From Macrostomum lignano (Eukaryota), in assembly GCA_002269645.1 (NCBI GenBank), contig NIVC01002129.1, forward strand, positions 1 to 64,000: 64,000 nt of DNA, given 5' to 3'. The notes under the pieces were generated by a model that worked only from the letters and a program-made list of their open reading frames with translations, did no database searches and had not been told where the DNA came from. The position numbers were made by a program, and so were the translations under genes. The stretch's first letter is position 1. Each line of letters opens with the position of its first letter. Of the stretch, positions 1 through 48,642 are shown one piece after another.

Positions 1-1304
1 ATTTTCTGCGTTTGTCAATCTCTGTTTCCGTGGTAAAGAATTTGCATAGTTGACCACTTGCTGCTGGTTTTTCAAACGCTCGCTGCGACGAGTAGGAGCA
101 CTTGGTACAACGTCGCTCTTCTTTTCTCGACCTCTTCCTTTTTCCAAATGGCAAGAAACGCTTGAAACCGCCGAAACTGAGTCGCCACAACCGATGCAAC
201 TGCAACATGGTGCTCTCCGAGTGCGACTGCTTCTTCTCAATAAGCTCTGACCAGATACACTAGAGGCTGCAACAGACACAGACTCTAATGTGTTTGCTTT
301 AGCGCTCAGTCGACTACTCCGACGCGTAGCGCAACTTGCCTTCCCAACATCCTTTTTACGCCGACTGCGCCGCGGAACATTTGATGGCACGGACTCTGAC
401 ACACGATCACTTTTAACTGACTCTGACACATGCTCAATTTCAACTGACTCTGCGCTATCCTCCGCGTCAAGATCGACATTCCAATTCCAGACAGAGTTGT
501 TCCGATCCCGAAGCACTTCATATGAATTCGGATGCGCAAACAAACTCGTATTATTTTCCAAGGACTTTGCTTGATTTCTACAACGTCCCTTCCAATGCCT
601 ACTTTGAACTCGGGTCCAGTCTGCAACCTTTTCAAAAGGCGTCATTGGTGGAGCTGGAGGTGGCATCATTACAACAGGATCTTCGACAACATGAACATTC
701 TCGTTGAGAGGGGGCATTTCCACATTCTTGGCGCTCAAATCTCCTTGGCCAGTCGGCCGAACTGAGCTTGCTTCATTAACTTCCAAATCATTGACACGAA
801 CGATTTCGTAGTGTTGACTACCAGGATTAAACAACAATCGAATAGTAGCCAAACGTTCTCCAATATTCGGTCGGGAATAATGGCCAGGCCGCGCTAGATT
901 AAGCATGTTTGACTGATAAATAAACACTTCTAGCCGCAACAGTTCACCAATTAGTTCTGGAACTCCGCATGGCACGTACATACGGGGACGCCTTGTATCG
1001 TCGCGCACTTTTTCCCAATTCAGTCCTGTTTGCATAATTCTTTCCTGATTATTGACATCGCGATGCACCCATTGCTCGAATTCTGCAGCAACCGCATCTC
1101 GAAAATCTTCTACGCTTAGCGATTGATAGGCGGAAAAACCTGGCAGTTCTTGTAATTGTCTCAATATGGCCGTGAAAAAACAGTTGCCGTCACCTCGTAC
1201 ATTCTCAACGCGACACGAAGAAAAAGGAACCCATACAGGTTGGACTTGTACAGCAGCAGTTACATGACCTTCGGCAAAATCCATTGCAGTAGCACCTGTT
1301 TCAT
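1..1304 (-). CDS. Large exon of an OTU-domain protein (3' end outside window)
   Basis: The acceptor ttttacag|AT at 1304 is followed by 434 stop-free codons to position 1. The translation contains VENVRGDGNCFFTAILRQL (OTU catalytic Asp/Cys motif, 1180-1194) and LLFNPGSQHYEIV (catalytic His motif, 802-816). A Ser/Arg-rich tail follows (PRRSRR, TRRSSRLSAK, RRSSRT, TRRSERL). The ORF track misses it because there is no stop inside the window. Confidence 0.8.
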
Positions 1305-1489
1305 CTGTAAAAGAATACAACTCTTAAACAGTGAGGTATGATAATTTTAAGGAATTGAGCATTAATTGTATTTTGCACAAGTCGTAAACACTAAAATCTA
1401 ATTTTCAATATTCGCAAGCAAAGTCAGATGTAAGAAAGAAAATTAACTTGTACTATGCATAGAAATTCAATAAAAAATAAAACTCTCAC

Positions 1490-1860
1490 CAGCACTCAAG
1501 TAGCCTATAAGTTGCTCATTGTAAGCAGCACCAGAATTGGGCACTTCAGCATCACCTTCGACCACGGGTATTCCGAAGCAGCCAGAGCGTCGGCCAGAGC
1601 AGCATCATGTTCAGCTAGCAGGGCAGCCAGACCAGCCTCGTCCAGCTTAATCACAGACTCAGTTTTAGCAGCAGCATCAGCAGAAGCACCAGCTTTAGTC
1701 CCAGCAGCGGCAATAGAAGAGGCAGCAGCAGCTTCCGGTTGTACATCTGGCTCTTGAATCTGTTCTTCGCCAGCAGTTAAATCACCGACAGCAGCAACTT
1801 TAATATTATTCTTGGAGCGGCTCCAGTTTTTCTTCTTCGGCCGTCCGCACTTTTTCGCAC
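1490..1860 (-). CDS. Upstream exon of the OTU gene (AT-hook-like KCGRPKKK plus Ala/Glu-rich linker), apparent 1-nt frameshift
   Basis: Acceptor tttaaacag|GT at 1860 and donor G|gtgag at 1490. It translates as GAKKCGRPKKKNWSRSKNN...EEQIQEPDVQPEAAAASS...DALAA, then needs a frame change near 1573-1577 to continue GIPVVEGDAEVPNSGAAYNEQLIGYLSA. The length of 371 nt is one short of the 372 needed for a phase-1/phase-1 exon. Confidence 0.65.
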
Positions 1861-2145
1861 CTGTTTAAAGTCACAGTAAAAAAGAAATTTATAAATCTAC
1901 CTATATATATATATATATATATATGTCTGTCCATCTATTTCGCTCTAGAGCGTGCCATTCTTGATCAATTTTGATAGCGTTTTTTCTAAACTATTGCAGA
2001 TTTTGCACTGATTATACAGTGGTCAAAATTTCTTAAATCTGCTCAAATTCTAAGGGTGTTAAACATTCGAAAATAGAGTTTCTATAATTATTTTAATGAT
2101 CTGTCAAACAAGGTCAGATTCCAATTGAATTTATTCCCTTTGTCA

Positions 2146-2325
2146 AAACTATTCAGTCGAAACTACTCAGTCGAAACTATTGAGTTCACACTATTCAGTC
2201 AAAACTACTCAGTCAAGATTATTAAGTCTAAACTATTCAGTTGTAACTATTCAGTTGAAATTATTCTGTCTGTCAAAACTATTCAGGCGAAACTATTCAA
2301 TCTAAACTATTGAGTGTGAACTATT
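2146..2325. repeat. Degenerate ~14-bp tandem repeat (aaactattcagt-like); also at 6718-6897
   Basis: Repeated aaactattcagtc / aactattga units are visible. Confidence 0.8.
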
Positions 2326-4211
2326 GATTTGAGCTGCGTCAGTTAAGAGTTTGAAAAATTCACATTTTTAGACATCTGAAAAACACTTTTTTACAGAATT
2401 ACCTGTGAACTATTCAGTGTGAGTTATAGTGTGAACAATTGAGATTTATTGTTTGGTAAATAAATTGTGTAGTGCAGGAACTTTTTAGTTTGTCTGTTGC
2501 CCAAATGGGCAGCCAAGAATGCTAGTAAAAGCTGGTTTCCTAAGGTGTGAATATTAATAATAAAGGTAGGATTGCTTTGAAACTATTCCTGAAAGTAGCA
2601 CCTATCACCTGCAAGTTGCAACAAATGTACAAAACTTACTATTGGCAGCAACAGAAGAAGCACTTGTATCCTTGTTAATGCTAGTGTTGTCCTTGATGCT
2701 GTTTTTGTCGTTGCCCATCCTGTCTAAATAAACATGTTAGTAAATATTTCAGAATGATAAAGAAACTAATTAGCTAAACACAGAAAACATGCTACTCTTT
2801 ACCAAGTTAACTCAACTCTTTTCTGGTGGCAAATTTAGTTAAACTACGAACACTAGCACTGCTACTGGATTGTGGATTAATATGCTGCAGCATAATATAC
2901 TGGCATATAGGCGGTGTGTGCCATGTAGTTTTTGTGCTTTCAACATTTTTTCTTGGATTTAGTGCATATTTTCTAGAGTTTTTTCAGGCATATTCCATGT
3001 TTTTGTACATGCTTCTAGGAATTCTATATCAGCAAAAAAACATCCCTTGGTAAAAATTCACCATAAACTAAGTGTCTAGCACTTTCAAGCATTGCTTGAT
3101 ATAAGGAGCATTGGCATGTATATATTGTCTAGCAAAAATGCTAAATTTATAATAAATTGAGCAGAATTTATAAAAAGTGTCCACAAACTTCTACCATTAA
3201 GCAGAGTACTACAGATATTTGTACTATGCTAAACATATGAAGAAATAAAAAGAATACTTACTTCAAAACTAAAGTCTTAAGTCAAAATTATGCAAACAAA
3301 AGGAAAATTCAAGTTAAATTTGACTGATAACTACAAAATAAAATGTGAAAGGATGAGTACTTTTAAAAGATATATGTAAATATGACTATAATTTATAAAA
3401 ATATGGAGCAAAAAGCAAAGCAGAGAAAAAAAACGTAAATATTTGGCAGAATACAATTAATTAGCTATAAAATAATATTAAAGTACTATACTTCAGTTAT
3501 ATTTCAAATAAAATTTGAAGCTTACACTTACAGTGTAAAACTGATAACAATTGAATATATTACAATTAAAACTTGTACTTGTAGAATATAATATATTGTA
3601 CAATAATTATATATAATGTAGTAGGATACGAATAAATAGCGTAACAAAACCGAATATTATAGCTACAGATTGAAGCTTGAAAATATTTCAGATTTAGATA
3701 GCGTTTGCTTAGATAAGTTGCTTTGAAAATTTGGGGTCAAATTTGTCCTACAGCAATAAACTACTGTTAACATAACCGATTTAAATTTAAATTTTTGTAG
3801 AAATTATAAGGAACAGAACGACTGAAATGTACAGTTTAATTATTTCAAAATTAAATAATTTCGAATTCTATTTTACCTTATTGCTTTCTTCAATTAAATT
3901 TTGTTATACAATTTATAAAATGCCTATTTTCAAAATATACCTCAAAAAGTAAGTTCAACAGCTTTAAAAATGCGCACGTTTTTACACTTCACGGCTCCAA
4001 AAAGTCACCATAGAAGATTTTTGCAGGACGCAAGACTTTTTACGTTACAAAATAGCACTTTTATGTGCATTTTTTATTCAGTTTCAAAAGGCTTTTTAGT
4101 TACCTATTTGGTATTTTTTGTTTTAAAGATTTTTGCGAAATCAGGTCATTTTAACTTGTTACGAAACTGTGGACCCACACTTTTACGCAACGCAATGCGC
4201 ATGATGTCATC

Positions 4212-5266
4212 TTAAAGCACTTGCTAAATGCTATTTATTGACACTACACTGAAGGCCTGGCGTAGGATAGTTAATAAATGGCAGCGTGAAATATAGCAAA
4301 AAAACGCATAGTACCGGAACCTCGTAATTCGGTAAAATGTTAATAGCGTCAAAATACGAATTTTCGCACACTAACGAAGATGGCAGTCATCTGTACGTGT
4401 TTACTGGGCACAATAGTGCTCTTGGAAGCTAAGAACCTCATAGCGAAAATTAATATATTTTCCGCCCTATGTAGTGCTCAAATGGGTTGTTTTTGCACAA
4501 AATCACGTTTTTCGATTTTGAGAGTCAATTAAAAATTTTTTTTGCAACTGACAGACGTGAATGTCACTTTTTCTGAGAGTATTCATCTAGATGTTTCTAA
4601 TAAGTACTAATATGGGTCATTCTTATGCTTCACCTATCCTTAGTATAGGTACAAAGTCATTATTTCATTTCCAGCAAGTCACGTGACCTGGCCTGAGGTG
4701 TACAACGCATCGTGCAATGCCAGCGAACATACACTCAAATTAAAGCACTTTTTAAATGCTAACTATTGACACCACACTGAAGGCCTGGCGTAGCATCGTT
4801 AATAAATGGCAGCGTGAAATATAGCAAAAAAACGCATAACACCGGAACCTCGTAATTCGGTAAATGTTATTAGCGTAAAAATACGAATTTTCGCACACTA
4901 ACGAAGATAGCAGTCATCTGTACGTGTTTACTGGGCACAATAGTGCTCTTGGAAGCTAAGAACCTCATAGCGAAAATCAATAAATTTTTCACCCTATGTG
5001 TGCTCATATAGGTTGTTTTTGCACAAAATCACGTTTTTCGATTTTAAAAGTCAATTATAACAAAATTTTGCAACTGACAGACGTGAATATCATTTTTTCT
5101 GACAGTAGTCATCTAGGTGTTTCTAATAAGTACAAATTTTGGTTCATTCTTACGCTTCACCTATCCTTAGTATAGGTACAAAGTCATTATTTCATTTCCA
5201 GCAAGTCACGTGACCTGACCTGAGGTGTACAACGCATCGTGCAATGACAGCGAACATACATTCAAA
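4212..5266. repeat. Two diverged ~528-bp tandem units (also at about 8784-9838)
   Basis: ttaaagcactt...cactgaaggcctggcgtag starts at 4212 and 4740; a partial third unit starts at 5267. Confidence 0.9.
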
Positions 5267-5824
5267 TTAAAGTACATCTAAAATGTAGTTCAATGACACC
5301 AAGCGCGTCGCGCTCCGGTAATCCGCTCAAAAGTTACAGGCTAAAAAGTATGTTCGATATGCAAGCCCCCGTACCGTCGTTAAAGTACATTTCTGTACCG
5401 GCAGCGACTTCAATAAACTAAGACGAAATTTCAAAATATACATATTGTGCGCAATTTAGTTGTGCACCTTGCCTAAAAAGTCTGATTTTCCTAGCATGTC
5501 GTCGTTTCTTATTTTTTGTACATTTGTATCATGAAAAATACATAAAAATAGCCTAAATCACGTTTATCGACTTTAGCAGTGTATGGCTCAGAGTCAGTGC
5601 AACGAAACGGCTCAAAATGTATTATAAACATGTAGATCTTACCTAAATGACCGCATTCATGTACTTTTTAGAGTCTCGCAACAAGGTTGAATTTCCTTTA
5701 TTTCGGTTCGAATACCTACCCGTCGAATATTCGAATGTAATTAACAGGTGCGAATGTACAGTTAAAGTGAGTATCTTGGTTAAAGTCGTGCGTCATGTAA
5801 GAGTCCCAGGTGCCATTGTTAGAA

Positions 5825-5872
5825 TGACGCAGCTCAAAGGTCGCGCTGACGCGCGACCTTTGAGCTGCGTCA
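5825..5872. other. Perfect 22-bp inverted repeat with 4-nt loop (also 10398-10445)
   Basis: tgacgcagctcaaaggtcgcgc-tgac-gcgcgacctttgagctgcgtca. Confidence 0.95.
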
Positions 5873-6328
5873 GTTGAAAGTTGATAAAAATGCGCATTTT
5901 TTGACACTTAAAAAACACACTTTTACAGAATTACCTATCAAGGTAAGCATTTAGCGGAAAATAACCAATCAGTGTCTTGAAGGTCTGAAAATTCGCCAAA
6001 AGTTGGGTTCAATCAATTTTTGACTCCATATTGTGAATCCTTATTTTTTGAGATTCAAGATTTGGACGGGTCTAAAAAAAGTCACTTTTTTGTTGCCATG
6101 GCAACCAAGACGCGTTGCTATGGAACTTTCACGTCACACATCTTGTAGCCCTAAATGTTTTACGTCCATAGAGGGGTCACACATGGTTTCATCTCAAGTG
6201 GTTTTAACTCTGCATCAATTTTATTTTCTAAAACGTTGATTTTACGTTGGGGGAGTCTCCGGGACATCTTATCTCGGTCTCGTTTGTCCGGAAAAATTGC
6301 CAACGAGGAGCGAAGCGAGCGAAGCGAG

Positions 6329-9300
6329 TCTGTTCTTCGCCAGCAGTTAAATCACCGACAGCAGCAACTTTAATATTATTCTTGGAGCGGCTCCAGTTTT
6401 TCTTCTTCGGCCGTCCGCACTTTTTCGCACCTGTTTAAAGTCACAGTAAAAAAGAAATTTATAAATCTACCTATATATATATATATATATATATATGTCT
6501 GTCCATCTATTTCGCTCTAGAGCGTGCCATTCTTGATCAATTTTGATAGCGTTTTTTCTAAACTATTGCAGATTTTGCACTGATTATACAGTGGTCAAAA
6601 TTTCTTAAATCTGCTCAAATTCTAAGGGTGTTAAACATTCGAAAATAGAGTTTCTATAATTATTTTAATGATCTGTCAAACAAGGTCAGATTCCAATTGA
6701 ATTTATTCCCTTTGTCAAAACTATTCAGTCGAAACTACTCAGTCGAAACTATTGAGTTCACACTATTCAGTCAAAACTACTCAGTCAAGATTATTAAGTC
6801 TAAACTATTCAGTTGTAACTATTCAGTTGAAATTATTCTGTCTGTCAAAACTATTCAGGCGAAACTATTCAATCTAAACTATTGAGTGTGAACTATTGAT
6901 TTGAGCTGCGTCAGTTAAGAGTTTGAAAAATTCACATTTTTAGACATCTGAAAAACACTTTTTTACAGAATTACCTGTGAACTATTCAGTGTGAGTTATA
7001 GTGTGAACAATTGAGATTTATTGTTTGGTAAATAAATTGTGTAGTGCAGGAACTTTTTAGTTTGTCTGTTGCCCAAATGGGCAGCCAAGAATGCTAGTAA
7101 AAGCTGGTTTCCTAAGGTGTGAATATTAATAATAAAGGTAGGATTGCTTTGAAACTATTCCTGAAAGTAGCACCTATCACCTGCAAGTTGCAACAAATGT
7201 ACAAAACTTACTATTGGCAGCAACAGAAGAAGCACTTGTATCCTTGTTAATGCTAGTGTTGTCCTTGATGCTGTTTTTGTCGTTGCCCATCCTGTCTAAA
7301 TAAACATGTTAGTAAATATTTCAGAATGATAAAGAAACTAATTAGCTAAACACAGAAAACATGCTACTCTTTACCAAGTTAACTCAACTCTTTTCTGGTG
7401 GCAAATTTAGTTAAACTACGAACACTAGCACTGCTACTGGATTGTGGATTAATATGCTGCAGCATAATATACTGGCATATAGGCGGTGTGTGCCATGTAG
7501 TTTTTGTGCTTTCAACATTTTTTCTTGGATTTAGTGCATATTTTCTAGAGTTTTTTCAGGCATATTCCATGTTTTTGTACATGCTTCTAGGAATTCTATA
7601 TCAGCAAAAAAACATCCCTTGGTAAAAATTCACCATAAACTAAGTGTCTAGCACTTTCAAGCATTGCTTGATATAAGGAGCATTGGCATGTATATATTGT
7701 CTAGCAAAAATGCTAAATTTATAATAAATTGAGCAGAATTTATAAAAAGTGTCCACAAACTTCTACCATTAAGCAGAGTACTACAGATATTTGTACTATG
7801 CTAAACATATGAAGAAATAAAAAGAATACTTACTTCAAAACTAAAGTCTTAAGTCAAAATTATGCAAACAAAAGGAAAATTCAAGTTAAATTTGACTGAT
7901 AACTACAAAATAAAATGTGAAAGGATGAGTACTTTTAAAAGATATATGTAAATATGACTATAATTTATAAAAATATGGAGCAAAAAGCAAAGCAGAGAAA
8001 AAAAACGTAAATATTTGGCAGAATACAATTAATTAGCTATAAAATAATATTAAAGTACTATACTTCAGTTATATTTCAAATAAAATTTGAAGCTTACACT
8101 TACAGTGTAAAACTGATAACAATTGAATATATTACAATTAAAACTTGTACTTGTAGAATATAATATATTGTACAATAATTATATATAATGTAGTAGGATA
8201 CGAATAAATAGCGTAACAAAACCGAATATTATAGCTACAGATTGAAGCTTGAAAATATTTCAGATTTAGATAGCGTTTGCTTAGATAAGTTGCTTTGAAA
8301 ATTTGGGGTCAAATTTGTCCTACAGCAATAAACTACTGTTAACATAACCGATTTAAATTTAAATTTTTGTAGAAATTATAAGGAACAGAACGACTGAAAT
8401 GTACAGTTTAATTATTTCAAAATTAAATAATTTCGAATTCTATTTTACCTTATTGCTTTCTTCAATTAAATTTTGTTATACAATTTATAAAATGCCTATT
8501 TTCAAAATATACCTCAAAAAGTAAGTTCAACAGCTTTAAAAATGCGCACGTTTTTACACTTCACGGCTCCAAAAAGTCACCATAGAAGATTTTTGCAGGA
8601 CGCAAGACTTTTTACGTTACAAAATAGCACTTTTATGTGCATTTTTTATTCAGTTTCAAAAGGCTTTTTAGTTACCTATTTGGTATTTTTTGTTTTAAAG
8701 ATTTTTGCGAAATCAGGTCATTTTAACTTGTTACGAAACTGTGGACCCACACTTTTACGCAACGCAATGCGCATGATGTCATCTTAAAGCACTTGCTAAA
8801 TGCTATTTATTGACACTACACTGAAGGCCTGGCGTAGGATAGTTAATAAATGGCAGCGTGAAATATAGCAAAAAAACGCATAGTACCGGAACCTCGTAAT
8901 TCGGTAAAATGTTAATAGCGTCAAAATACGAATTTTCGCACACTAACGAAGATGGCAGTCATCTGTACGTGTTTACTGGGCACAATAGTGCTCTTGGAAG
9001 CTAAGAACCTCATAGCGAAAATTAATATATTTTCCGCCCTATGTAGTGCTCAAATGGGTTGTTTTTGCACAAAATCACGTTTTTCGATTTTGAGAGTCAA
9101 TTAAAAATTTTTTTTGCAACTGACAGACGTGAATGTCACTTTTTCTGAGAGTATTCATCTAGATGTTTCTAATAAGTACTAATATGGGTCATTCTTATGC
9201 TTCACCTATCCTTAGTATAGGTACAAAGTCATTATTTCATTTCCAGCAAGTCACGTGACCTGGCCTGAGGTGTACAACGCATCGTGCAATGCCAGCGAAC

Positions 9301-10950
9301 ATACACTCAAATTAAAGCACTTTTTAAATGCTAACTATTGACACCACACTGAAGGCCTGGCGTAGCATCGTTAATAAATGGCAGCGTGAAATATAGCAAA
9401 AAAACGCATAACACCGGAACCTCGTAATTCGGTAAATGTTATTAGCGTAAAAATACGAATTTTCGCACACTAACGAAGATAGCAGTCATCTGTACGTGTT
9501 TACTGGGCACAATAGTGCTCTTGGAAGCTAAGAACCTCATAGCGAAAATCAATAAATTTTTCACCCTATGTGTGCTCATATAGGTTGTTTTTGCACAAAA
9601 TCACGTTTTTCGATTTTAAAAGTCAATTATAACAAAATTTTGCAACTGACAGACGTGAATATCATTTTTTCTGACAGTAGTCATCTAGGTGTTTCTAATA
9701 AGTACAAATTTTGGTTCATTCTTACGCTTCACCTATCCTTAGTATAGGTACAAAGTCATTATTTCATTTCCAGCAAGTCACGTGACCTGACCTGAGGTGT
9801 ACAACGCATCGTGCAATGACAGCGAACATACATTCAAATTAAAGTACATCTAAAATGTAGTTCAATGACACCAAGCGCGTCGCGCTCCGGTAATCCGCTC
9901 AAAAGTTACAGGCTAAAAAGTATGTTCGATATGCAAGCCCCCCGTACCGTCGTTAAAGTACATTTCTGTACCGGCAGCGACTTCAATAAACTAAGACGAA
10001 ATTTCAAAATATACATATTGTGCGCAATTTAGTTGTGCACCTTGCCTAAAAAGTCTGATTTTCCTAGCATGTCGTCGTTTCTTATTTTTTGTACATTTGT
10101 ATCATGAAAAATACATAAAAATAGCCTAAATCACGTTTATCGACTTTAGCAGTGTATGGCTCAGAGTCAGTGCAACGAAACGGCTCAAAATGTATTATAA
10201 ACATGTAGATCTTACCTAAATGACCGCATTCATGTACTTTTTAGAGTCTCGCAACAAGGTTGAATTTCCTTTATTTCGGTTCGAATACCTACCCGTCGAA
10301 TATTCGAATGTAATTAACAGGTGCGAATGTACAGTTAAAGTGAGTATCTTGGTTAAAGTCGTGCGTCATGTAAGAGTCCCAGGTGCCATTGTTAGAATGA
10401 CGCAGCTCAAAGGTCGCGCTGACGCGCGACCTTTGAGCTGCGTCAGTTGAAAGTTGATAAAAATGCGCATTTTTTGACACTTAAAAAACACACTTTTACA
10501 GAATTACCTATCAAGGTAAGCATTTAGCGGAAAATAACCAATCAGTGTCTTGAAGGTCTGAAAATTCGCCAAAAGTTGGGTTCAATCAATTTTTGACTCC
10601 ATATTGTGAATCCTTATTTTTTGAGATTCAAGATTTGGACGGGTCTAAAAAAAGTCACTTTTTTGTTGCCATGGCAACCAAGACGCGTTGCTATGGAACT
10701 TTCACGTCACACATCTTGTAGCCCTAAATGTTTTACGTCCATAGAGGGGTCACACATGGTTTCATCTCAAGTGGTTTTAACTCTGCATCAATTTTATTTT
10801 CTAAAACGTTGATTTTACGTTGGGGGAGTCTCCGGGACATCTTATCTCGGTCTCGTTTGTCCGAAAAAATTGCCAACGAGGAGCTACGCTCGCTTCGCTC
10901 GCTTCGCTCCTCGTTGGCAATTTTTCCGGACTGCACTTCGACCTAACTAG
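6329..10950. repeat. Copy B of the 4.57-kb tandem duplication, ending in a hairpin and CTAG
   Basis: Near-identical to copy A. It includes a duplicated 5' part of the OTU exon (6329-6430), a terminal hairpin at 10859-10931 and CTAG at 10947-10950. Confidence 0.95.
10859..10931. other. 26-bp stem / 21-nt loop hairpin at the end of the duplicated unit (rolling-circle-element-like terminus)
   Basis: Arms gtccgaaaaaattgccaacgaggagc (10859-10884) and gctcctcgttggcaatttttccggac (10906-10931) differ by one mismatch; the loop is tacgctcgcttcgctcgcttc. Confidence 0.9.
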
Positions 10951-12176
10951 CTAGGCCTATAATCTAATTTCAAATCTTGATCATCAATCTTGATCAAAAA
11001 TTTAAATGAATCTTTTTTATTTTTAATTGAAATTTTAATGATTGACCTTAGGCCTATCAGTTTTGTCCATGCTACAATATAAATATAACTAGGCCTAATA
11101 ATACTTGTGCTAATGTTATTAAATTTAAATATCTAATTCTAATAGATTAGCAAATTTATTTGAAAGCTATATTCAATTGGTTTTAAGTGTACTATTGACC
11201 TTAGAATATGCTTGGTATATAATATCTAGCATACTACAATGATAGTATAGTGCTACTATGCCATGGTGAATTTGTGCACTATTGTGTTGGTATATAGTGT
11301 AGGCCTAGCTTTGTTTTTTGCATCTTTAAAATTTCAATAATATTAGACTATTTGATTATTTAGTTAAGAAAAAAATTAGAACAAGTTTCCTTATAAATTA
11401 TTTTTAGGTCTATACCTTTTTAATTTTTCTTAACTTTTCAATTTAGACTAAGCCTAGCCCTAGAATTATCTGTCTATTAGCAAATAAATAGCTAGGCCTA
11501 TTAGACAAATAGTCCAATACCTATGTGAATTATGTTAAATTGCCAGATATAATTAAAAAAGAATACTATTTTTGCTTATTTTTGTCATTTTAAAAAATTG
11601 AATTCGTAACAAGAATGAATAGCTTAATATAATTATAAAGTTCTTTTATAATATTAAACTTTTTTGCATGATTTCAGTTCAAAATTGACAACTATATTAA
11701 CTTAATAATAGCTTTAAAAGAAAAAGATTTTAGCCTCTTAGATTCCTCTTTCAACAACTATTTTATTGTGATCTATTTATCAAGTTATTTATCAAGCTTA
11801 TAAATAATTATTTTTATATGAAAATAAAATTAGATTATGAAAGTAAACTAGGACTCCAAATATAGGCCTATAAACCAAATATAAACTTGATTCCATGTTC
11901 CAGACTACCAGACCATGTGTAACAGAACTGGCCAGGACTACCAAGTGAAGGGCTGACCAATAGGAGGCACAAAGGTTAGCATTATTGAACCATTGATCAT
12001 TGTCAAATAGTTCGCTTTTTCTAATCCCACTAATCTACTTTATGAGTGATAATTTTTCATGTATTACAATGTTGTTTTTGTAAAGCATACATTTTGACAC
12101 AAATTTAAAAATAAGAGATTTGTTAAGAAAAATGTCATCTACAAACAGTCCTTTTACATATCACCCTTCTTTTCAG

Positions 12177-12286
12177 ACGTGATACCAAGTACCCAAATGG
12201 CAGATGCAGCCATCGGGGCACGCATTGGTTGGTACCTGCGAGATGCGAATCAGCGACTGGGGAGGAGGAATGAAGTGCAACAGTGA
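12177..12286 (+). other. Orphan terminal-exon-like segment, possibly BEN/DUF4806-like transposon ORF end
   Basis: Good acceptor ccttcttttcag followed by VIPSTQMADAAIGARIGWYLRDANQRLGRRNEVQQ*. The family resemblance is from recall only. Confidence 0.25.
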
Positions 12287-12349
12287 CAAAAAACAACCTG
12301 CACACTGCTTATTTTCCCCTCATTGGAGGTGGTCCAAAATCCTTCATAG

Positions 12350-12640
12350 GCTCAGACCTACTTTACATGACAGCTGTCAGTGAACCTATCCAGCCTCTGT
12401 CCATTGCTTCTTAAAGCCGACATGCCCAGGTGCCACACTCCTCCAGGTCATCTTTGACCTTATCGTTCTCTTCGCACCCAGTACAGATGTTTGATCCTCT
12501 TCAACCGCGAATCCTCATGCTCCCTAAGTCCCAGCCATTGTAGTCGCCATGCCTTTTCAATGTGATCTTTCCCACTTTCAAGATCCACCTGTTACTCCTG
12601 TTCTCACTATTAAAATCCTGTCATCAACCGCAGCGTCCTT
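12350..12640 (-). mobile_element. Decayed non-LTR retrotransposon (RTE-like) ORF2 3' end
   Basis: The minus strand reads WRLQWLGLREHEDSRLKRIKHLYWVRRER*GQR*PGGVW, resembling the RLxWLGHxxR...DSRLPK..LY C-terminus of RTE-clade LINEs; it contains stops. Confidence 0.45.
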
Positions 12641-13484
12641 ACCTGTCACTCACTGCCGATTCTCCTAATCTGTCGTGACGTCACTGCACCACCTTGGTTA
12701 ATTACCAATTAGAAATATGGGCTAACCCTATTGTAAGATGTAACCATACAGAAGAACCCTACAGATTATAATACTAATTTAAGATTATTTAGATGCCAGC
12801 TCATTGAGCCATTTAATCAGTACTTCTTTTTCTCACATAGTTCTCGCTGTTTGCTGTTATCGAATTTGATTTTTCTTCTTTTTCGAAGAAGTTTTCCTCT
12901 TTATTTTGCAGTGCAATGTTTTCACAGTTCATCTATAATGCTCGCTATAGCTCATTGAGCCCTGTTATCTATGCTTCAATTTTTTTATGCAGTTAGTTGA
13001 CTGTTATCACTGTCACTGTTACCAAAAAGCTCGTAGTTTACAGAAAAATAATACAAATTATACTTTTTTGTAATTCATCTTCTGCTGTTACCTTGTGTGC
13101 CATTATATTAAAACACGATTATATCGTCCATATACTAAAAATGGTTTGTCTTACATACATCCCTTTACTCATTTCAATATTTGTAACTTGCACAATAATT
13201 GAATTTACCGGTTTTTCTACAACTAGCTATAGCGTACTGGCACAAAATGGTATGTCTGTATGATCTGTGTGATTCTGTGCGCTTGTCTATCATTTTATAC
13301 CGGAGCTCGAGTGAAGTTGAACCAATAGTACATTTACCATCTAGCAAAGAATCATTTTAAGCTATTCTACTTGTATATGATAGTTTTTTTATGGCTTAGA
13401 AATTTTTAGCAGGACATTATCGATCAGCAGCAGATAGATTAAATTGCATTTTACGACACGCGAGGGCCGCGAAAACTACATGAA

Positions 13485-13682
13485 ATTGAATACGACATCA
13501 ATACGACATTGCGACATACATACGATGTAAAAACGACGTACATACAATGTCAAAACGACATACATACGACGTCGAAACGATATAAACACGATGTCGAAAC
13601 GACGTAGTAGGGCGGGGAAAAACCACGACATCGAAACGACATCGCAAAACGACGTCGTTTCGACATCGTTTTTCCCAGTGGG
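13485..13682 (-). mobile_element. One terminus of a CACTA/EnSpm-like non-autonomous element with subterminal repeats
   Basis: The minus strand begins CCCACTGGGAAAAACGATGTCG and is followed by many acgacatcg/cgatgtcg repeats in both orientations; no partner end was found. Confidence 0.55.
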
Positions 13683-16651
13683 TAGTGGTCCTTGCCTCGA
13701 CTTCGTCCAGCACACAGGCGCACGACGGTCTTCTGCGCGTTGACCACCCAGGTCAACACTCCCCGCAACGCTAACCAGCTTATCCAGTTGTCGCTGGGCG
13801 ACAGCAGGGCGAAATGATCAGCGTATAGCCCAGCACGTCGTTGACCCACGCAGTAACCAAAATTAACCCACGAAGAACGCGATGCACCCTTGTTTTTCTG
13901 GATGTAGCGGTAGACCTTCCAAAGGTCTAAATATTCTGATTATTAACAGAACAAAGCGAGCAAATTGCACTGACAATTACGCTAATTGAGGGCATGTTTG
14001 CACAGCATCGCAATCTTTTCATCTCTTCATAATTGCAATTGGTGGAGACTTTGCCCTTTAAAGACTTACTGTGTGGAAATTGTGTCCGTTTCTACACTGG
14101 CAACGGCATTGTCGTTGCCAATGGAAACAAGAAGCAATTAATCATTCACTCTACTGCTGATCCTTTGTTTATTGTCAATATTAGGCGTGACCCGGCCTCT
14201 TGCTAAAATTGATGATGGAAAATGACTTCAATCCTGCAGCTGCTTCCAGTGTAAATTTGATTTGCCTACAAGTGCAAATTAGTTCCCTAAGAATCACTTT
14301 CCAAGTAACAAAAGCTGCATTGGGCTTACTGAGGTTAGTTGGCGACGTTGCTAAACATTTATTGCAGAATAATTAAATTTCTGTAGGTTTAGAGGTGCAT
14401 CTGGCACCTGTCGTGCGTCTCCCTCTAGAAACGAAACGTGATCGGCAAACAGGCTCAAATGAAATGATTGGCAACAAGTGATTCACTGTCCCACTAATCA
14501 AAAAGCGATCTGCATAATTATCATGAGACATGAGTGACGCCCAGATAGGAAAACCGGGACTCCACCTAAATAAAGAGGAGCGCCCATGCATCTAAGAGAC
14601 AGAGATACTGGGGCATCTACTGTGCTGTTGCTTCCTAGCATTTATTTTTAGTAAAGCGGTTGCTTGTTTCTTATGGCCTAAGAGAATTTAGTTGCTCGTA
14701 CAGTCAGCCACAGCCTAAAGAAGCGAGAGACAAGCGCGGCGGCTTCGCTCAAACTTCTTACCGCCTTCCACTGCATGCGCATTATTGCAGTAAACTAGGA
14801 CTAGAGTCACTTTTGTTGATTTTGTCGTACAATATACCATGTGGACCTTTGAATCTTCTACAAAAGGTGGCTCACTGCAGTGTCACTGTTTAAGAACGCA
14901 AAGTTATACATGTACTGATGTACATGTATAAAACACCATATTTGTCGAACTAAAAAAATATAGCTAGCTGTACATGTACATACTCACTATACATTTAAAT
15001 TTACATTTTAATGATGGAAACCACAAAGCGAAGCCAAAGATATATTACTTAACGAGTGAATATATAACGATGGAAAAAAAGTTTCTCAAAGATTCAAGTG
15101 AACGAGTATCTCAAGCAGAAAAAGAGAACTCCGGTAGTAATAAAAGTTTGTAGTTTAAAACAAATTTACTAATTAGCTAAGTTTCTTACTTGTATATTTT
15201 CAAAATTCAAGATAAATAAAGAAAAAAACTAGTTAGTTAACAAAAAACTGAAATACTGATTAGATTAATATCTTGTATTGTCGTTTATCGTGTTAATTTT
15301 TGACATTAGGAGCTAATAAACATTTCCTAGACACATCATCCTAATGTTCTATCCAAATCATAATTCTTATCCTGAAACTAAAATTGCATGTCGATAGGCG
15401 CCTTCTTATAATAATAACATAGACTATAGTTTAAAATCTAAAGTGCTATTGTGAAAGTGAAAGCAAAGTATATTCCACGTTTAATGCTTTTAAATATATA
15501 TGAAATTGAAAGTAGAAGCCAAACATATTTTTAGCCACAGTATGATTGTGAGTATCAATGTTAAAAAATATAATACTTAATTTTTTGACATTATGATAAT
15601 GGCATAAAAAGAATTTGTGAAAATATAGCTTATTTAAACGTCTTTTAAAATAATACTTGGTCCTTAAAAGTAAAATTAAGCATATATTTCTTTATGCAAA
15701 ATATATAAATTTAATCTCTTTATTCTATAAAGACATACAATACAAACAATACTATCAAACCAAACTGGCAAGTTGGTAAAATAAGCCTAAGGCAATAAGA
15801 AGCTAAATTTATGTGTACAAAGTTGTATTTATAATAATAAAATTGTAGAATGTAGTCATTACTTAGTATAATTATAATTACTATGATAAAATTATTAAAA
15901 TAGTTAGTATTTAGCTTTAAAACATGGTATAAAATTTTGTATAAAAGAGGGTCAAAGTTCAAGTTGTCACAATGAAAATGAATTTTTTTATATAGCTTAT
16001 AAAGTTATAACTTATGAAACCTAGTCTATATGTATTTATATAGGTTTTGTATTATTATAGATTGTATAGCAATGTCAAAATGCCCTCATTATATAAAAAC
16101 TATTTTTTGCTGTTACACTGATATTTCATATTTTATAAAGCAAAGCTATACAACACTACAAGCCTATCAAATAAGTTTTAGCCAAAATATAGACCAATCA
16201 CTAATAATGTAAGCATTTAACCTAAGAGTTGACAGGTCTTTTAAAACTTTAAAAAGCAATATAGCCCAATTAATGTGTATATCTCTTTTTAGTGCTTCTC
16301 TCTCTCATCTCTAATTTACTTTCTCCTCTCTCCTCTTTTCTTCTTTATTCCCTCACCCCATTTCTCCAACCTGTAGTCATACTTTGGGTTCTCTATCCAG
16401 CGCTTATGGCAAAAAAGTTATCCTATCCTTGAATTAACATATTCATACAACTTTTGTAGCAGAATTTGTTCATATTATATAACCAAATTAAAAATTTTAT
16501 GCTAAGAACCCGTCATGATATCATCGAGTTGTTCAGAAACACTTTCAAACAATTTCTAATCATATGATATCTCCAGAGCCAAACAACAATCATTGTAACA
16601 AACAAAAAGTGCGCCAATTTGAATAAAGCTCAAACATTTGTGAAATAGAAG

Positions 16652-45499: not shown

Positions 45500-46941
45500 A
45501 GCTATCAGATTGAAACTGTCACATATATATATATAGAATACTTTCACTTAAAAGTTGCGCGTCTATAATATGCTAATTGTAAATACATGTTAATTGCGCA
45601 ATTTTAACTGTGGTTGCTGATAACTTGTTTAACTTTTTAACTCCCATCTATCGTAAATATGAAATATGATTATTTTTTATCATATTTAGATAAGAATATA
45701 AGCGCCTTGTCTGTCTTGAGAAAAAAAACAAGAAACCTCGTACTATTATAATGCAACCCGAAATACTAAAGTTTTGTAAAAAAACAATAAAGGGGACATT
45801 AAATTTATATATAAAAACAAGATATATACTTTGTCAATTGCGAGAATCTCTATATTAATGATACGCTCGTATTTCAGCCAATCAACTACAAAGGAACTTT
45901 TTAGGCTATTTTGCGAATCTACGATCACATTATACGTGCAATCAGATGTGTATCATCTTCAATATGTATGTCTAGATATTTTTTCTTTATTGAAACATTC
46001 TTCCTTTCCGTGTCAACTTAAAAACGCATTAACTTATTTTCATTAATTGGTGTACCTGCTTTATGCTTTACTTTTGGTTGCAGGATCGAATCTATGTGGT
46101 TTTGGCTTTGCATCTATTGTATTGTTTCACTGGAATAGATTGTAAGCATGATTCATTCACAAATCAATTTCAAGGCATTAAAGTGCAATAATGTTTGTGG
46201 TGGTTCTCAATCGAAAGCTAATTATTATTTAAATTGCCTTTTGTTTCAAAAAATTCTAGTTTTTTTTAATCGTGCAGTAATTACTAGATGATGAAATTTA
46301 CAAAAACACTTTGCATTGCGTATGGCTAGAATTTATTATAGCTTGCACTCGACAATAAATACATCCATACTTTATATTCTCCTATCGAGATACAAACATT
46401 TTATGGTTAAAATTCTCTGAATAAAATATTTCCTTTGTTAAATTTTGTTAGTTTTTTTCTTCGAGGTACACTGTAAAACATTACTGATTTAGCTGGTTTA
46501 CTATAAAGAGAAACGCATACAGAGTTAACAAGCTTCCGTAATGCAAATTGATCTTTTTCTGCAAACCGCTGGAATTTTAAATCAATGCAGGAATTAGAAA
46601 GTCTGCTTATTTACACTGTTTATATACGAGCGTATTACTTGCTAGCTTGCTTCAAGCAAGTAAAATATATGTACAAGTATATTGTATCCTTACAGCTTCT
46701 GTTTGCATTTGGTAAACATTTTTGCTAGTCCAAACACACAATGCTAAACTCAATTCAAGATTTTTTTTCAATTTAGAGTTCATCGGAAACACGCAAGATT
46801 TTTAGTTTACTAAAGTGGACTTTTTGTGATTGGCTGCAGATTTGCCATTGATTTGCAGTCTTGAGAAAATAAAACATGCACACAGCTTGCATCTGGGTGG
46901 AATGGAAGACTTCAACAAACCGTGGTCGCGTTAGAATCGGT

Positions 46942-48642
46942 ATGTCAGACCAACAACAGGATGCCGCATCTTTCAGACAGAGGAATCGACTGCTGACTTG
47001 GCTGGCTCCGCTGGAGAACTGCATGCAGAGCAGCTCAGTACACGGATTGAGCAGATTAGTTGGCGACACGAAACCGCTGTACCTTCGCATCGCCTGGCTC
47101 ATCGCTGTCCTTCTCTCGTTCGCTTTCTGCAGTTTGCGCATATTTGAACTCTGCGAACGATTCTCCAGTCGGAACATAGCCTGGACGGTGCGCGAGAACG
47201 CCATCAGCTTTGAGTTTCCGGATCTGTACGTGTGCAATGCGAATCCAATTTCTGGTAGCTTTCCAGGAATTCTCAACTCCTCGTCTATCGGGGTGCTGAA
47301 TCGGTACAGGCGAATGGCTAGAGAGTCGACTGCAAGATTTCGCGACGCTTGGAACCAGTCTGAGCTGGCTCTGTACCCTGCGCTGCTAGTCAACAGCCTG
47401 CCATTCCAGTTCCTGTCGGATCACCTGGCTCACAGGGCCTACCAGACTGTAATCTTTTCCAGCCTAACAACCACCTTTGTTCCGGTGAAGACTTTCTACC
47501 ATCCCCGCTATGTCAACTGCATCAGCCTCAACATGAGCGAGGCCGATCGACTCGTGTCCGGGCACCGGGGATTCGGTGTGTTTCTCATTCTGTTTCTAGA
47601 CTCCCTGCTGTCAACAGTCAGCGATATCGATAGCATCGATTTTCTAAACGGAAATTCCAGTCTGTCTCTTGTGGATTTAGACTGGGATTTCGGCGTGGAC
47701 TATTGGCGCCCTAACGGATTCCACGTATTCCTGACTCCGAAAGATGAGTACCCGAGCGAGCTGGGTGCCCACTTTACTGTAGGACCCGGGCAACAGGCTC
47801 GAGCCCAGGTCCGCATGGAGGACACCGTGTACAATCCTGGCGATTTTCCTGACATCTGCGGCTCCGATGCGGGTAACAAAGGAGAGTCAGACTGGATTGA
47901 TTTTGTTAATCCTTACACTAAAGCGAAAGAGAGGTTTCTAAAGAGCCAGGAAACCTGCTTCTATCAAGAGCTGGCCAGCCTGTATCAGAAGTTAATGAAC
48001 TGTTCGGGCTCCCGAATACCACTGGCCTGGGCTTACCGGCACCTGCCCTATTGTATGAACATCACTAACGGTGAAAGGACACCGATAGACAGTAAATTTC
48101 ATCGACTTCGAAGCGACGCAACCATTGCCGCCTTGCAGAAGTGCGACAAGTTCAAGCGCTGCAAGACCCGTTCCTACACTTACGACTACTCTTCCAGCGG
48201 CCTGACGCAAGACCATACTGCTCAGCAATTCCTTGCCGCCGCGATTCGTAGCAACTACGTGAGTCTAAAATCCACCGGCCTAAAACTGCCAGGCATTGAG
48301 CACCTGCTCCAGCTGAACAATAGTAACAATCTGGAGAAGTTCCGTCAATCGATTGCCCAGATTTCGGTGTCGGCCGTGTCCAGTCAGAGCCGCGAGGTGG
48401 AACTGTCGTTACGCTACAACGCCAACTCGCTGTTGGCGGATGCCGGGGGGATGCTGGGCTTCTTCCTGGGCATGTCACTGCTGTCAATGCTGGAGCTGCT
48501 GGAACTCCTGCATAACTGCGCCCGCTACGTCTGCCGCAGTTGGAAAAAACGCGTCCTTGCCAACGATGAGAAGTCGACGACATCCATGCAACAGACTGAG
48601 CCGGAAACGATTGATGGCACCACAACCGCGTCCGAAGTTTAA
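46942..48642 (+). CDS. Intronless DEG/ENaC (ASIC-like) amiloride-sensitive sodium channel subunit, 566 aa
   Basis: Pre-TM1 SSSVHG motif, TM1 LRIAWLIAVLLSFAFC, FPDLYVCNANP, HPRYVNCISLN, and TM2 SLLADAGGMLGFFLGMSLLSMLELLE with GxS filter. The first true ATG is at 46942; the track ORF begins at an upstream GTG. Confidence 0.93.
   Translation: MSDQQQDAASFRQRNRLLTWLAPLENCMQSSSVHGLSRLVGDTKPLYLRIAWLIAVLLSFAFCSLRIFELCERFSSRNIAWTVRENAISFEFPDLYVCNANPISGSFPGILNSSSIGVLNRYRRMARESTARFRDAWNQSELALYPALLVNSLPFQFLSDHLAHRAYQTVIFSSLTTTFVPVKTFYHPRYVNCISLNMSEADRLVSGHRGFGVFLILFLDSLLSTVSDIDSIDFLNGNSSLSLVDLDWDFGVDYWRPNGFHVFLTPKDEYPSELGAHFTVGPGQQARAQVRMEDTVYNPGDFPDICGSDAGNKGESDWIDFVNPYTKAKERFLKSQETCFYQELASLYQKLMNCSGSRIPLAWAYRHLPYCMNITNGERTPIDSKFHRLRSDATIAALQKCDKFKRCKTRSYTYDYSSSGLTQDHTAQQFLAAAIRSNYVSLKSTGLKLPGIEHLLQLNNSNNLEKFRQSIAQISVSAVSSQSREVELSLRYNANSLLADAGGMLGFFLGMSLLSMLELLELLHNCARYVCRSWKKRVLANDEKSTTSMQQTEPETIDGTTTASEV

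Follow-up and report, generated by a model that had tools for sequence, protein, structure and literature searches.

An inverted hairpin fragment at the join of a tandemly duplicated HLE2 Helitron front in Macrostomum lignano

Helitrons of the HLE2 (Helitron2) group are recognised by the domain DUF6570 (PMC11417382). Their 5′ hairpin is described as lying 0–2 bp from the end of the element (PMC3627910), the hairpins of the Fusarium members have GAA loops (PMC5148889), and insertion is reported to occur between T and T without target duplication (PMC11417382). In some of them the open reading frame (ORF) is reversed (PMC3627910). Duplicated 5′ ends have been reported in the group, and multiple 5′ termini arising by self-insertion have been proposed for Fusarium (PMC5148889). 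The mechanism of HLE2 transposition is at present inferred from the HLE1 element Helraiser, whose top strand is cleaved, joined and transposed (PMC5876387) and in which 3′ truncations occur (PMC5876387, PMC4778049). Inversion of a loop through template switching at a hairpin is also documented (PMC8794818). The DNA analysed here, called the window, is positions 1 to 64,000 of the forward strand of contig NIVC01002129.1 from the flatworm Macrostomum lignano. At its left edge lies the front of an element with an HLE2-type RepHel gene, and this front is duplicated in tandem, with an inverted piece of a hairpin at the join.

The duplication spans 4.57 kb and the insert at the join 43 nt. Read along the ORF strand, the order is the end hairpin, 4.57 kb of element, the complement of the loop and outer arm, and then, starting at the inner stem base, the element once more. 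The parts are as follows.

10859..10931, minus strand: intact hairpin of copy B, with a 26-bp stem and a 21-nt loop.
6329..10858, minus strand: body of copy B, the duplicated 5′ segment, which ends inside exon 2 of the RepHel gene.
6286..6328, plus strand: inverted templated insert of 43 nt, made of the outer arm and 17 of the 21 loop bases; reverse complement of 10889-10931.
1759..6285, minus strand: body of copy A, which runs on leftwards into the rest of the RepHel gene.
10932..10957, minus strand: probable element boundary, a composition break with a candidate TT at 10946-10945.

A sequence-only reading of the locus had already described the hairpin of copy B, and its stem does pair at 25 of 26 positions, with one mismatch. 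Its folding energy is -29 to -33 kcal/mol (z about -8), and none of 200 shuffles equals it on either strand. The same reading had taken 6286-6328 for the exact reverse complement of 10889-10931, with an inverted loop that bears the diagnostic base of the other arm and is cut midway where it meets the start of copy B. Each of these observations holds. Identity to the reverse complement is complete (43/43), and the ten of these 43 positions that are informative about orientation all show the inverted form and none the colinear form, G6291 included. Seventeen of the 21 loop bases (6312-6328) precede the join at 6328|6329, and 0 of 200,000 shuffles gave them. The proposal that the hairpin marks the duplication breakpoint is likewise upheld by the position of the insert at the join of the copies; only three distinct stems of at least 16 bp occur in the whole window, and the breakpoint falls inside one of them.

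The further claim, that the two copies carry the hairpin in flip and flop orientations, survives only in part. The inverted sequence is present, but there are not two true isomers: copy A retains 43 of 73 nt and cannot refold (-9.4 kcal/mol, z 0.06, equalled by 102 of 200 shuffles). Copy A is a half-arm fragment and no longer a hairpin, and one complete orientation only is found in the window. A single inversion at a duplication junction is also expected from ordinary template switching or from an artefact. The remainder of the copy A hairpin is not found elsewhere in the window, where the arm has only three exact occurrences, and this absence is what a single concerted event predicts.

The bodies of the two copies are nearly identical, with no substitutions and three gap columns in 4,530 columns (one TA unit and one C in a run). 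Copy B contains a duplicate of exon 1 at 7290-7210 and a partial exon 2 at about 6431-6329, the breakpoint 1758|1759 lying inside exon 2. The two junctions of the insert differ in character. On the loop side, where it meets the start of copy B (6329, the equivalent of 1759), there is 0 nt of microhomology. At the stem base the switch point lies within a 5-nt shared window, and the inserted arm is identical to the inner arm at 25 of 26 positions. A 6-bp fold-back at 6319-6340 extends over the loop junction, pairing GCGAAG of the insert with CTTCGC at the equivalent of 1765-1770; such a fold-back, noticed post hoc, occurs at 36 of 6,199 possible breakpoints, or at 5.7–8% by a looser definition. 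The A|TC context at 1758|1759 was considered as an HLE1-like start and set aside, the context being shared by 68 of 6,284 positions and the protein being of HLE2 type.

The RepHel gene has its exons in the window at 2718-2638, 1864-1488 and about 1304-1.

2638..2718, minus strand: exon 1, the predicted first coding exon, 27 aa, identical at 27/27 to gene models P0001, P0002 and P0009, with AG/GT splice sites.
1488..1864, minus strand: exon 2, weakly similar to the N-terminus of P0011 (32% over 75 aa, E 0.049).
1..1323, minus strand: open frame of 441 aa running off the left edge, with an OTU-like protease domain (about 780-1260) followed by a low-complexity linker.

The OTU-like domain reaches a Pfam E of 0.01 only. 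The frame has Atlas matches at 0.93 to OTU clusters, OTU is found in four of its six library matches, and a conserved GDGxC is present, with a His close to the end. A protein search with the frame gave two gene models (of 696 candidates) that are 99–100% identical over the matching part. Because window positions 669-1 encode a sequence identical at 223/223 residues to the RepHel protein P0010 (1,797 aa), the autonomous Rep/HUH partner, for which the sequence-only reading had suggested a search, can be placed in cis. The cluster of P0010 holds 18 member sequences, possibly copies or re-annotations. Downstream, a Pfam scan of P0010 gives the order DUF6570 (E 2.1e-18), Helitron_like_N (8.7e-30) and PIF1 (5.9e-27), and the Helraiser structure 7lcc is matched over the helicase (E 1.8e-13). 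Its Rep motifs, FFVTLSAAD, RIEYQSRGSPHVH and YLIKYATK, agree with the Helentron rows of a published alignment (PMC4067079, supplementary file 5) and differ from its Helitron rows; motif 2 is of the GSPH type, not the GLPH type of canonical HLE1 Helitrons. A search with the Rep region found 32 relatives among 4,843 candidates, with Helitron_like_N in 29 and DUF6570 in 26. Motif 2 has GS in 31, the other being truncated before it. The closest named relatives are Macrostomum lignano proteins (53–63% identity). P0011 joins OTU and RepHel in one protein that is collinear with the window ORF (E 1e-23). An AP-endonuclease was absent from Pfam scans of P0009, P0010, P0011 and P0013, models that could be incomplete. 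From this protein evidence the element is assigned as an autonomous-type HLE2 (Helitron2), with a predicted RepHel of the order OTU, DUF6570, HUH Rep and PIF1 that reads leftwards out of the window.

Relative to model P0001, the frame of exon 2 is shifted by 1 nt in a C run near 1566 (1565-1568), and this shift may be either a real inactivation or an assembly or consensus error. In P0001, P0002 and P0009 RepHel is also fused with host exons of Kazal repeats that the window lacks, which suggests that a further copy of the element lies within a gene of this kind. The Kazal domains were rejected as a part of the element (best window match E 0.12; absent in P0010, P0011 and P0013), and are treated as neighbouring host exons probably fused by gene prediction.

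The hairpin of copy B is probably the ORF-upstream (left) terminal hairpin of the element, as we infer from a compositional boundary and from analogy with described HLE2 termini. The CpG-rich zone is unbroken between 4212 and the hairpin, a little beyond which it ends sharply, with 54 CpG in 9900-10946, the last of the dense zone at 10939, and one in 10947-11900. The GC change point is at 10957, where GC falls from 0.39 to 0.24, and the composition break lies 9–26 nt outside the stem. Near it is the candidate TT, on the ORF (minus) strand at 10946-10945. The ORF strand would then be the transposed strand. Relatives with flanking sequence were sought in prokaryotic genome contigs, and none of the 80 loci kept matches the hairpin or the unit; Rep and helicase are both covered by only one of them, L003, which has no more than 132 nt ahead of the match, leaving no left end to compare. 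This locus has the full DUF6570-Rep-PIF1 span at 133-3936 of a 4.4-kb contig binned in an archaeal metagenome-assembled genome, and is probably eukaryotic HLE2 contamination. A plasmid search with 10800-10960 gave no match. The 12 Rfam matches to 1-16000 were not retained, all being below gathering score and to generic hairpin-shaped microRNA models.

We slightly favour an origin of both the 4.57-kb duplication and the 43-nt inverted insert in one double template switch at the HLE2 left end, as a one-off slip. A growing strand would have copied the element from its end as far as 1759. It would next have switched to a single strand of the same sense, at the loop of its folded terminal hairpin, and have copied 17 loop bases and then the outer arm backwards to the stem base. 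There it would have re-entered the element, with the new arm mimicking the inner arm; the rejoining could be in register because these arms are identical at 25 of 26 positions. The switch could have occurred at a RepHel strand-displacement fork, which would keep the displaced 5′ end close to the growing 3′ end. With about the same probability, it could have taken place where an ordinary host fork had stalled at the hairpin, without any need for RepHel. At a displacement fork, the hairpin could be retained by a RepHel that does not release the displaced 5′ end as its helicase moves on, and this might excuse the lack of microhomology at the loop junction. The 'melting-pot' model of circoviruses is reportedly a related idea.

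Several points weigh against this reading. A polymerase switch normally needs microhomology, and the loop-side junction has none. The return to the stem base occupies 6 of 27 slots, a chance of 0.22 under a uniform model, and so is no strong evidence for a targeted nick there, while the complete lack of substitutions between the copies fits an artefact equally well. The terminus is placed by composition in one genomic copy, and the stem ends 9–26 nt inside the compositional boundary, compared with the 0–2 bp described for Helitron2 (PMC3627910). No partner inverted repeat of at least 11 nt is present in the window, the other end of the element being off-window. The ORF is reversed in some HLE2 elements described in the same paper, so that the transposed strand could be the other one. 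Finally, the RepHel catalytic core of this copy lies to the left of the window, and the family features are those of P0010.

A technical origin is unlikely but has to be taken seriously. The structure would then be a chimeric molecule or read, formed when a polymerase switched at a strong hairpin during amplification or sequencing, or else a mis-assembly. The 4,530 columns without a substitution are consistent with this, and the differences are confined to a TA run and a C run. Run-length differences are the kind of error made by long-read consensus, and the exon 2 frameshift relative to P0001 is also in a C run; the blunt loop junction fits as well. However, a very recent real event would be expected to leave the copies just as identical. 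Moreover, the insert has every base right and its return at the stem base is in register, whereas simple fold-back reads give a long inversion and not 43 nt followed by a jump on the same strand.

In another explanation, the HLE2 family would have two genuine hairpin isomers, produced by Rep-dependent resolution or by arm-to-arm switching at the origin. Copy A would be a damaged flip form, in front of which a 5′ fragment of the flop form, copy B, was added. The inversion does start no more than 5 nt from the inner stem base and includes the base specific to that arm, an HUH enzyme is encoded in cis, and the self-insertion proposed for Fusarium HLE2 (PMC5148889) offers a source of added 5′ termini. 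Nevertheless we consider it improbable, since two events are required, the flip form amounts to 43 of 73 nt with no fold, and the site in the loop that would have been the target of insertion is G|C and not the T|T preferred by HLE2. Helraiser is described as cleaving and joining its top strand only (PMC5876387), whereas the insert is bottom-strand sequence, and a single literature search for flip/flop hairpins in Helitrons brought up no such report, its one match being a paper about polinton-like viruses. The related possibility that copy B inserted itself into the loop of copy A and left the remainder in place is rejected for this locus, as the arm is present exactly only three times in the window.

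It is also rather improbable, in spite of the distance between hairpin and gene, that the hairpin is a separate small repeat or flanking DNA, and was only the fragile point at which a host duplication by template switching arose, overlapping the front of the Helitron by chance. It is some 3.6 kb upstream of the first predicted exon and separated from it by AT-rich sequence and a number of internal repeats, and no family alignment joins it to the Helitron. Against this, the CpG-rich zone continues from 4212 to the hairpin before its abrupt stop, both hairpins of the unit have mini-hairpin apices on the ORF strand, and HLE2 elements are expected to have terminal hairpins (PMC3627910).

The sequence-only reading had drawn a comparison with rolling-hairpin replication and with a Rep-binding element of adeno-associated virus (AAV) in the GCTC-rich loop. 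The inverted loop beside an imperfect palindrome and the small palindromes within the loop would fit, but an endogenous parvovirus or AAV-like terminus is very unlikely: the longest tandem GAGC/GCTC run in the loop is 1, where AAV elements are described as needing more than (GAGC)3 (PMC11359079), the linked protein is a RepHel with PIF1, no parvoviral Rep/NS1 or capsid family was found in the scanned ORFs (25 of the 68 ORFs of at least 120 aa, the 43 left out lying mostly over tandem arrays or in alternative frames), and copy A retains half a hairpin only. What stands of that proposal is the link to an HUH, rolling-circle type of enzyme, through the HLE2 RepHel gene that starts in the window.

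Mini-hairpin motifs form the apex of the terminal hairpin, and a second hairpin of the unit likewise has a mini-hairpin apex.

10883..10907, minus strand (the RepHel coding strand): three GCGNAGC mini-hairpin motifs with GA spacers, starting at 10907, 10898 and 10889 (motif as defined in PMC13037366).
5823..5874, minus strand, with a duplicate at 10396-10447: second hairpin of the unit, a 24-bp stem with one mismatch and a 4-nt loop (z -10.8), with a GCGNNAGC apex on the ORF strand.

At 2328-2404 there is a direct repeat (83%) of a 78-bp module whose end is an arm of the second hairpin, possibly a relic of an older 5′ duplication. GCGNAGC sequences are described as unusually stable mini-hairpins that occur at the priming sites of single-stranded DNA (ssDNA) phages and bind single-strand binding protein poorly (PMC13037366). 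The triple is the sole one in the window, and five triples occur in 1.22 Mb of prokaryotic loci. Neither PMC11417382 nor PMC4067079 has the 12-nt loop motif in its text supplements, figures not being covered, and a literature search for the motif gave four unrelated papers.

A 35-nt apex query gave 45 matches to phage records at E up to 10. Twelve are to small viruses of ssDNA type (nine of them distinct), all on the plus strand as deposited and 11 outside annotated genes. The other 33 are to larger or unclassified genomes, including 17 related mycobacteriophages, and the best match (E 0.002) lies inside a gene of a 56-kb virus. Eight of the nine distinct small viruses were compared with their genes: the motif is on the gene strand in six, in an unannotated one, and opposite to the local genes in one. 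These eight have 43 mini-hairpins on the motif strand and five on the other, about 11 of the 43 lying within the matches themselves. The resemblance to ssDNA phages is a lead only, since its E values of 0.03–4 are in the chance range and the loci were chosen after the fact, with no denominator. A plasmid search with the same query gave 33 records, none better than E 1. Strongly one-stranded, mostly intergenic clusters of mini-hairpins were noticed in microviruses, an inovirus and a pleolipovirus (L001 401-434, L002 401-421, and L083-L088 near 701-724), and are possible second-strand origins.

Helraiser circles must be double-stranded for integration (PMC5876387), and a strand-specific crown of mini-hairpins is a candidate signal for converting or protecting a displaced single strand. 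A more ambitious and doubtful extension is that the locus preserves a frozen intermediate of HLE2 transposition. RepHel would hold the displaced 5′ hairpin at the displacement fork while the growing strand copies backwards, so that left ends are recurrently duplicated and inverted, and the GCGNAGC crown on the displaced strand, by convergence with ssDNA phage origins, would act as a signal in the single strand, either to load RepHel or to prime the second strand of the circles.

Other features of the duplicated unit include a tandem pair of about 528 bp at 4212-5301 (and 8784-9873), 91% identical and CpG-rich, which is a candidate promoter duplication; each member has a TCACGTGA site, presumably E-box-like. 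A perfect palindrome about 180 nt inside the terminal hairpin (6092-6105 and 10665-10678) has what we take to be an RFX X-box-like pattern. The intron between exons 1 and 2 contains a degenerate 14-bp tandem array of about 12 copies (2122-2332 and 6694-6904), and a TA microsatellite lies beside the exon 2 acceptor (1902-1924). Outside the element, a 22-bp tandem array at 13476-13680 ends in a 21-bp stem with a 40-nt loop (13588-13669) and is likely a small non-autonomous repeat. Further to the right are the host gene DENN/MADD (16649-41020), with its exons spread through minisatellite-filled introns, and a host ORF of 589 aa for an amiloride-sensitive sodium channel (46873-48642). Many minisatellites are found across the window.

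As it stands, the locus is an HLE2 Helitron with an unusual and well-resolved rearrangement of its front end, useful for annotation and otherwise of modest significance. If the structure is real and the same geometry is found in other copies, it would be direct evidence, at the sequence level, of what HLE2 elements do with their left hairpin and of how they come by multiple 5′ ends.

Duplications with templated junction inserts are known from template switching after the stalling of forks (FoSTeS) and from break-induced replication that is mediated by microhomology (MMBIR). The inverted loop and the opposite-arm base in register are as in hairpin template-switch mutations (PMC8794818), although here one switch only is local and the other jumps 4.57 kb without microhomology. 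Loop inversion as defined in that paper spans both stem halves and keeps the length of the loop, whereas the insert covers a single arm with 17 of the 21 loop bases and is alike at its first junction only. The AAV and parvovirus flip-flop termini (PMC11359079) share with the locus a loop in both orientations beside an HUH-encoding element, but here there is no complete second isomer and no (GAGC)3, the helicase is of another family and no capsid was seen in the scanned ORFs. With the mini-hairpins of ssDNA phage origins (PMC13037366) the apex has in common the same strand-specific motif, and near-identical apices occur in intergenic microvirus DNA (L001, L002); the likeness is however short and weak (E 0.03–4), and a function in Helitrons is putative. 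The Rep motif signature and OTU are those of Helentrons sensu stricto (PMC4067079), from which the gene models P0010 and P0011 differ in having no AP-endonuclease domain.

The closest system is HLE2/Helitron2 as described in PMC3627910, PMC5148889 and PMC11417382. The GSPH-type motif 2, DUF6570, the upstream OTU and the PIF1 helicase are all shared, as is a hairpin with GAA triloops at what is here the probable ORF-upstream end, and cases of duplicated 5′ ends are known from the group. Searches of the open-access literature, figures and bioRxiv supplements not being covered, gave no account of a Helitron 5′ duplication with an inverted piece of hairpin. The present hairpin is longer, with its 26-bp stem, and carries three mini-hairpin motifs; the duplicated part is 4.57 kb, whereas that described for Fusarium is typically below 200 bp (PMC5148889); and the hairpin of the inner copy is replaced by an inverted half. 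The element, as judged from its predicted protein, is a new member of HLE2, a group in which duplicated left ends were already known, and template switching at hairpins, too, had been described before.

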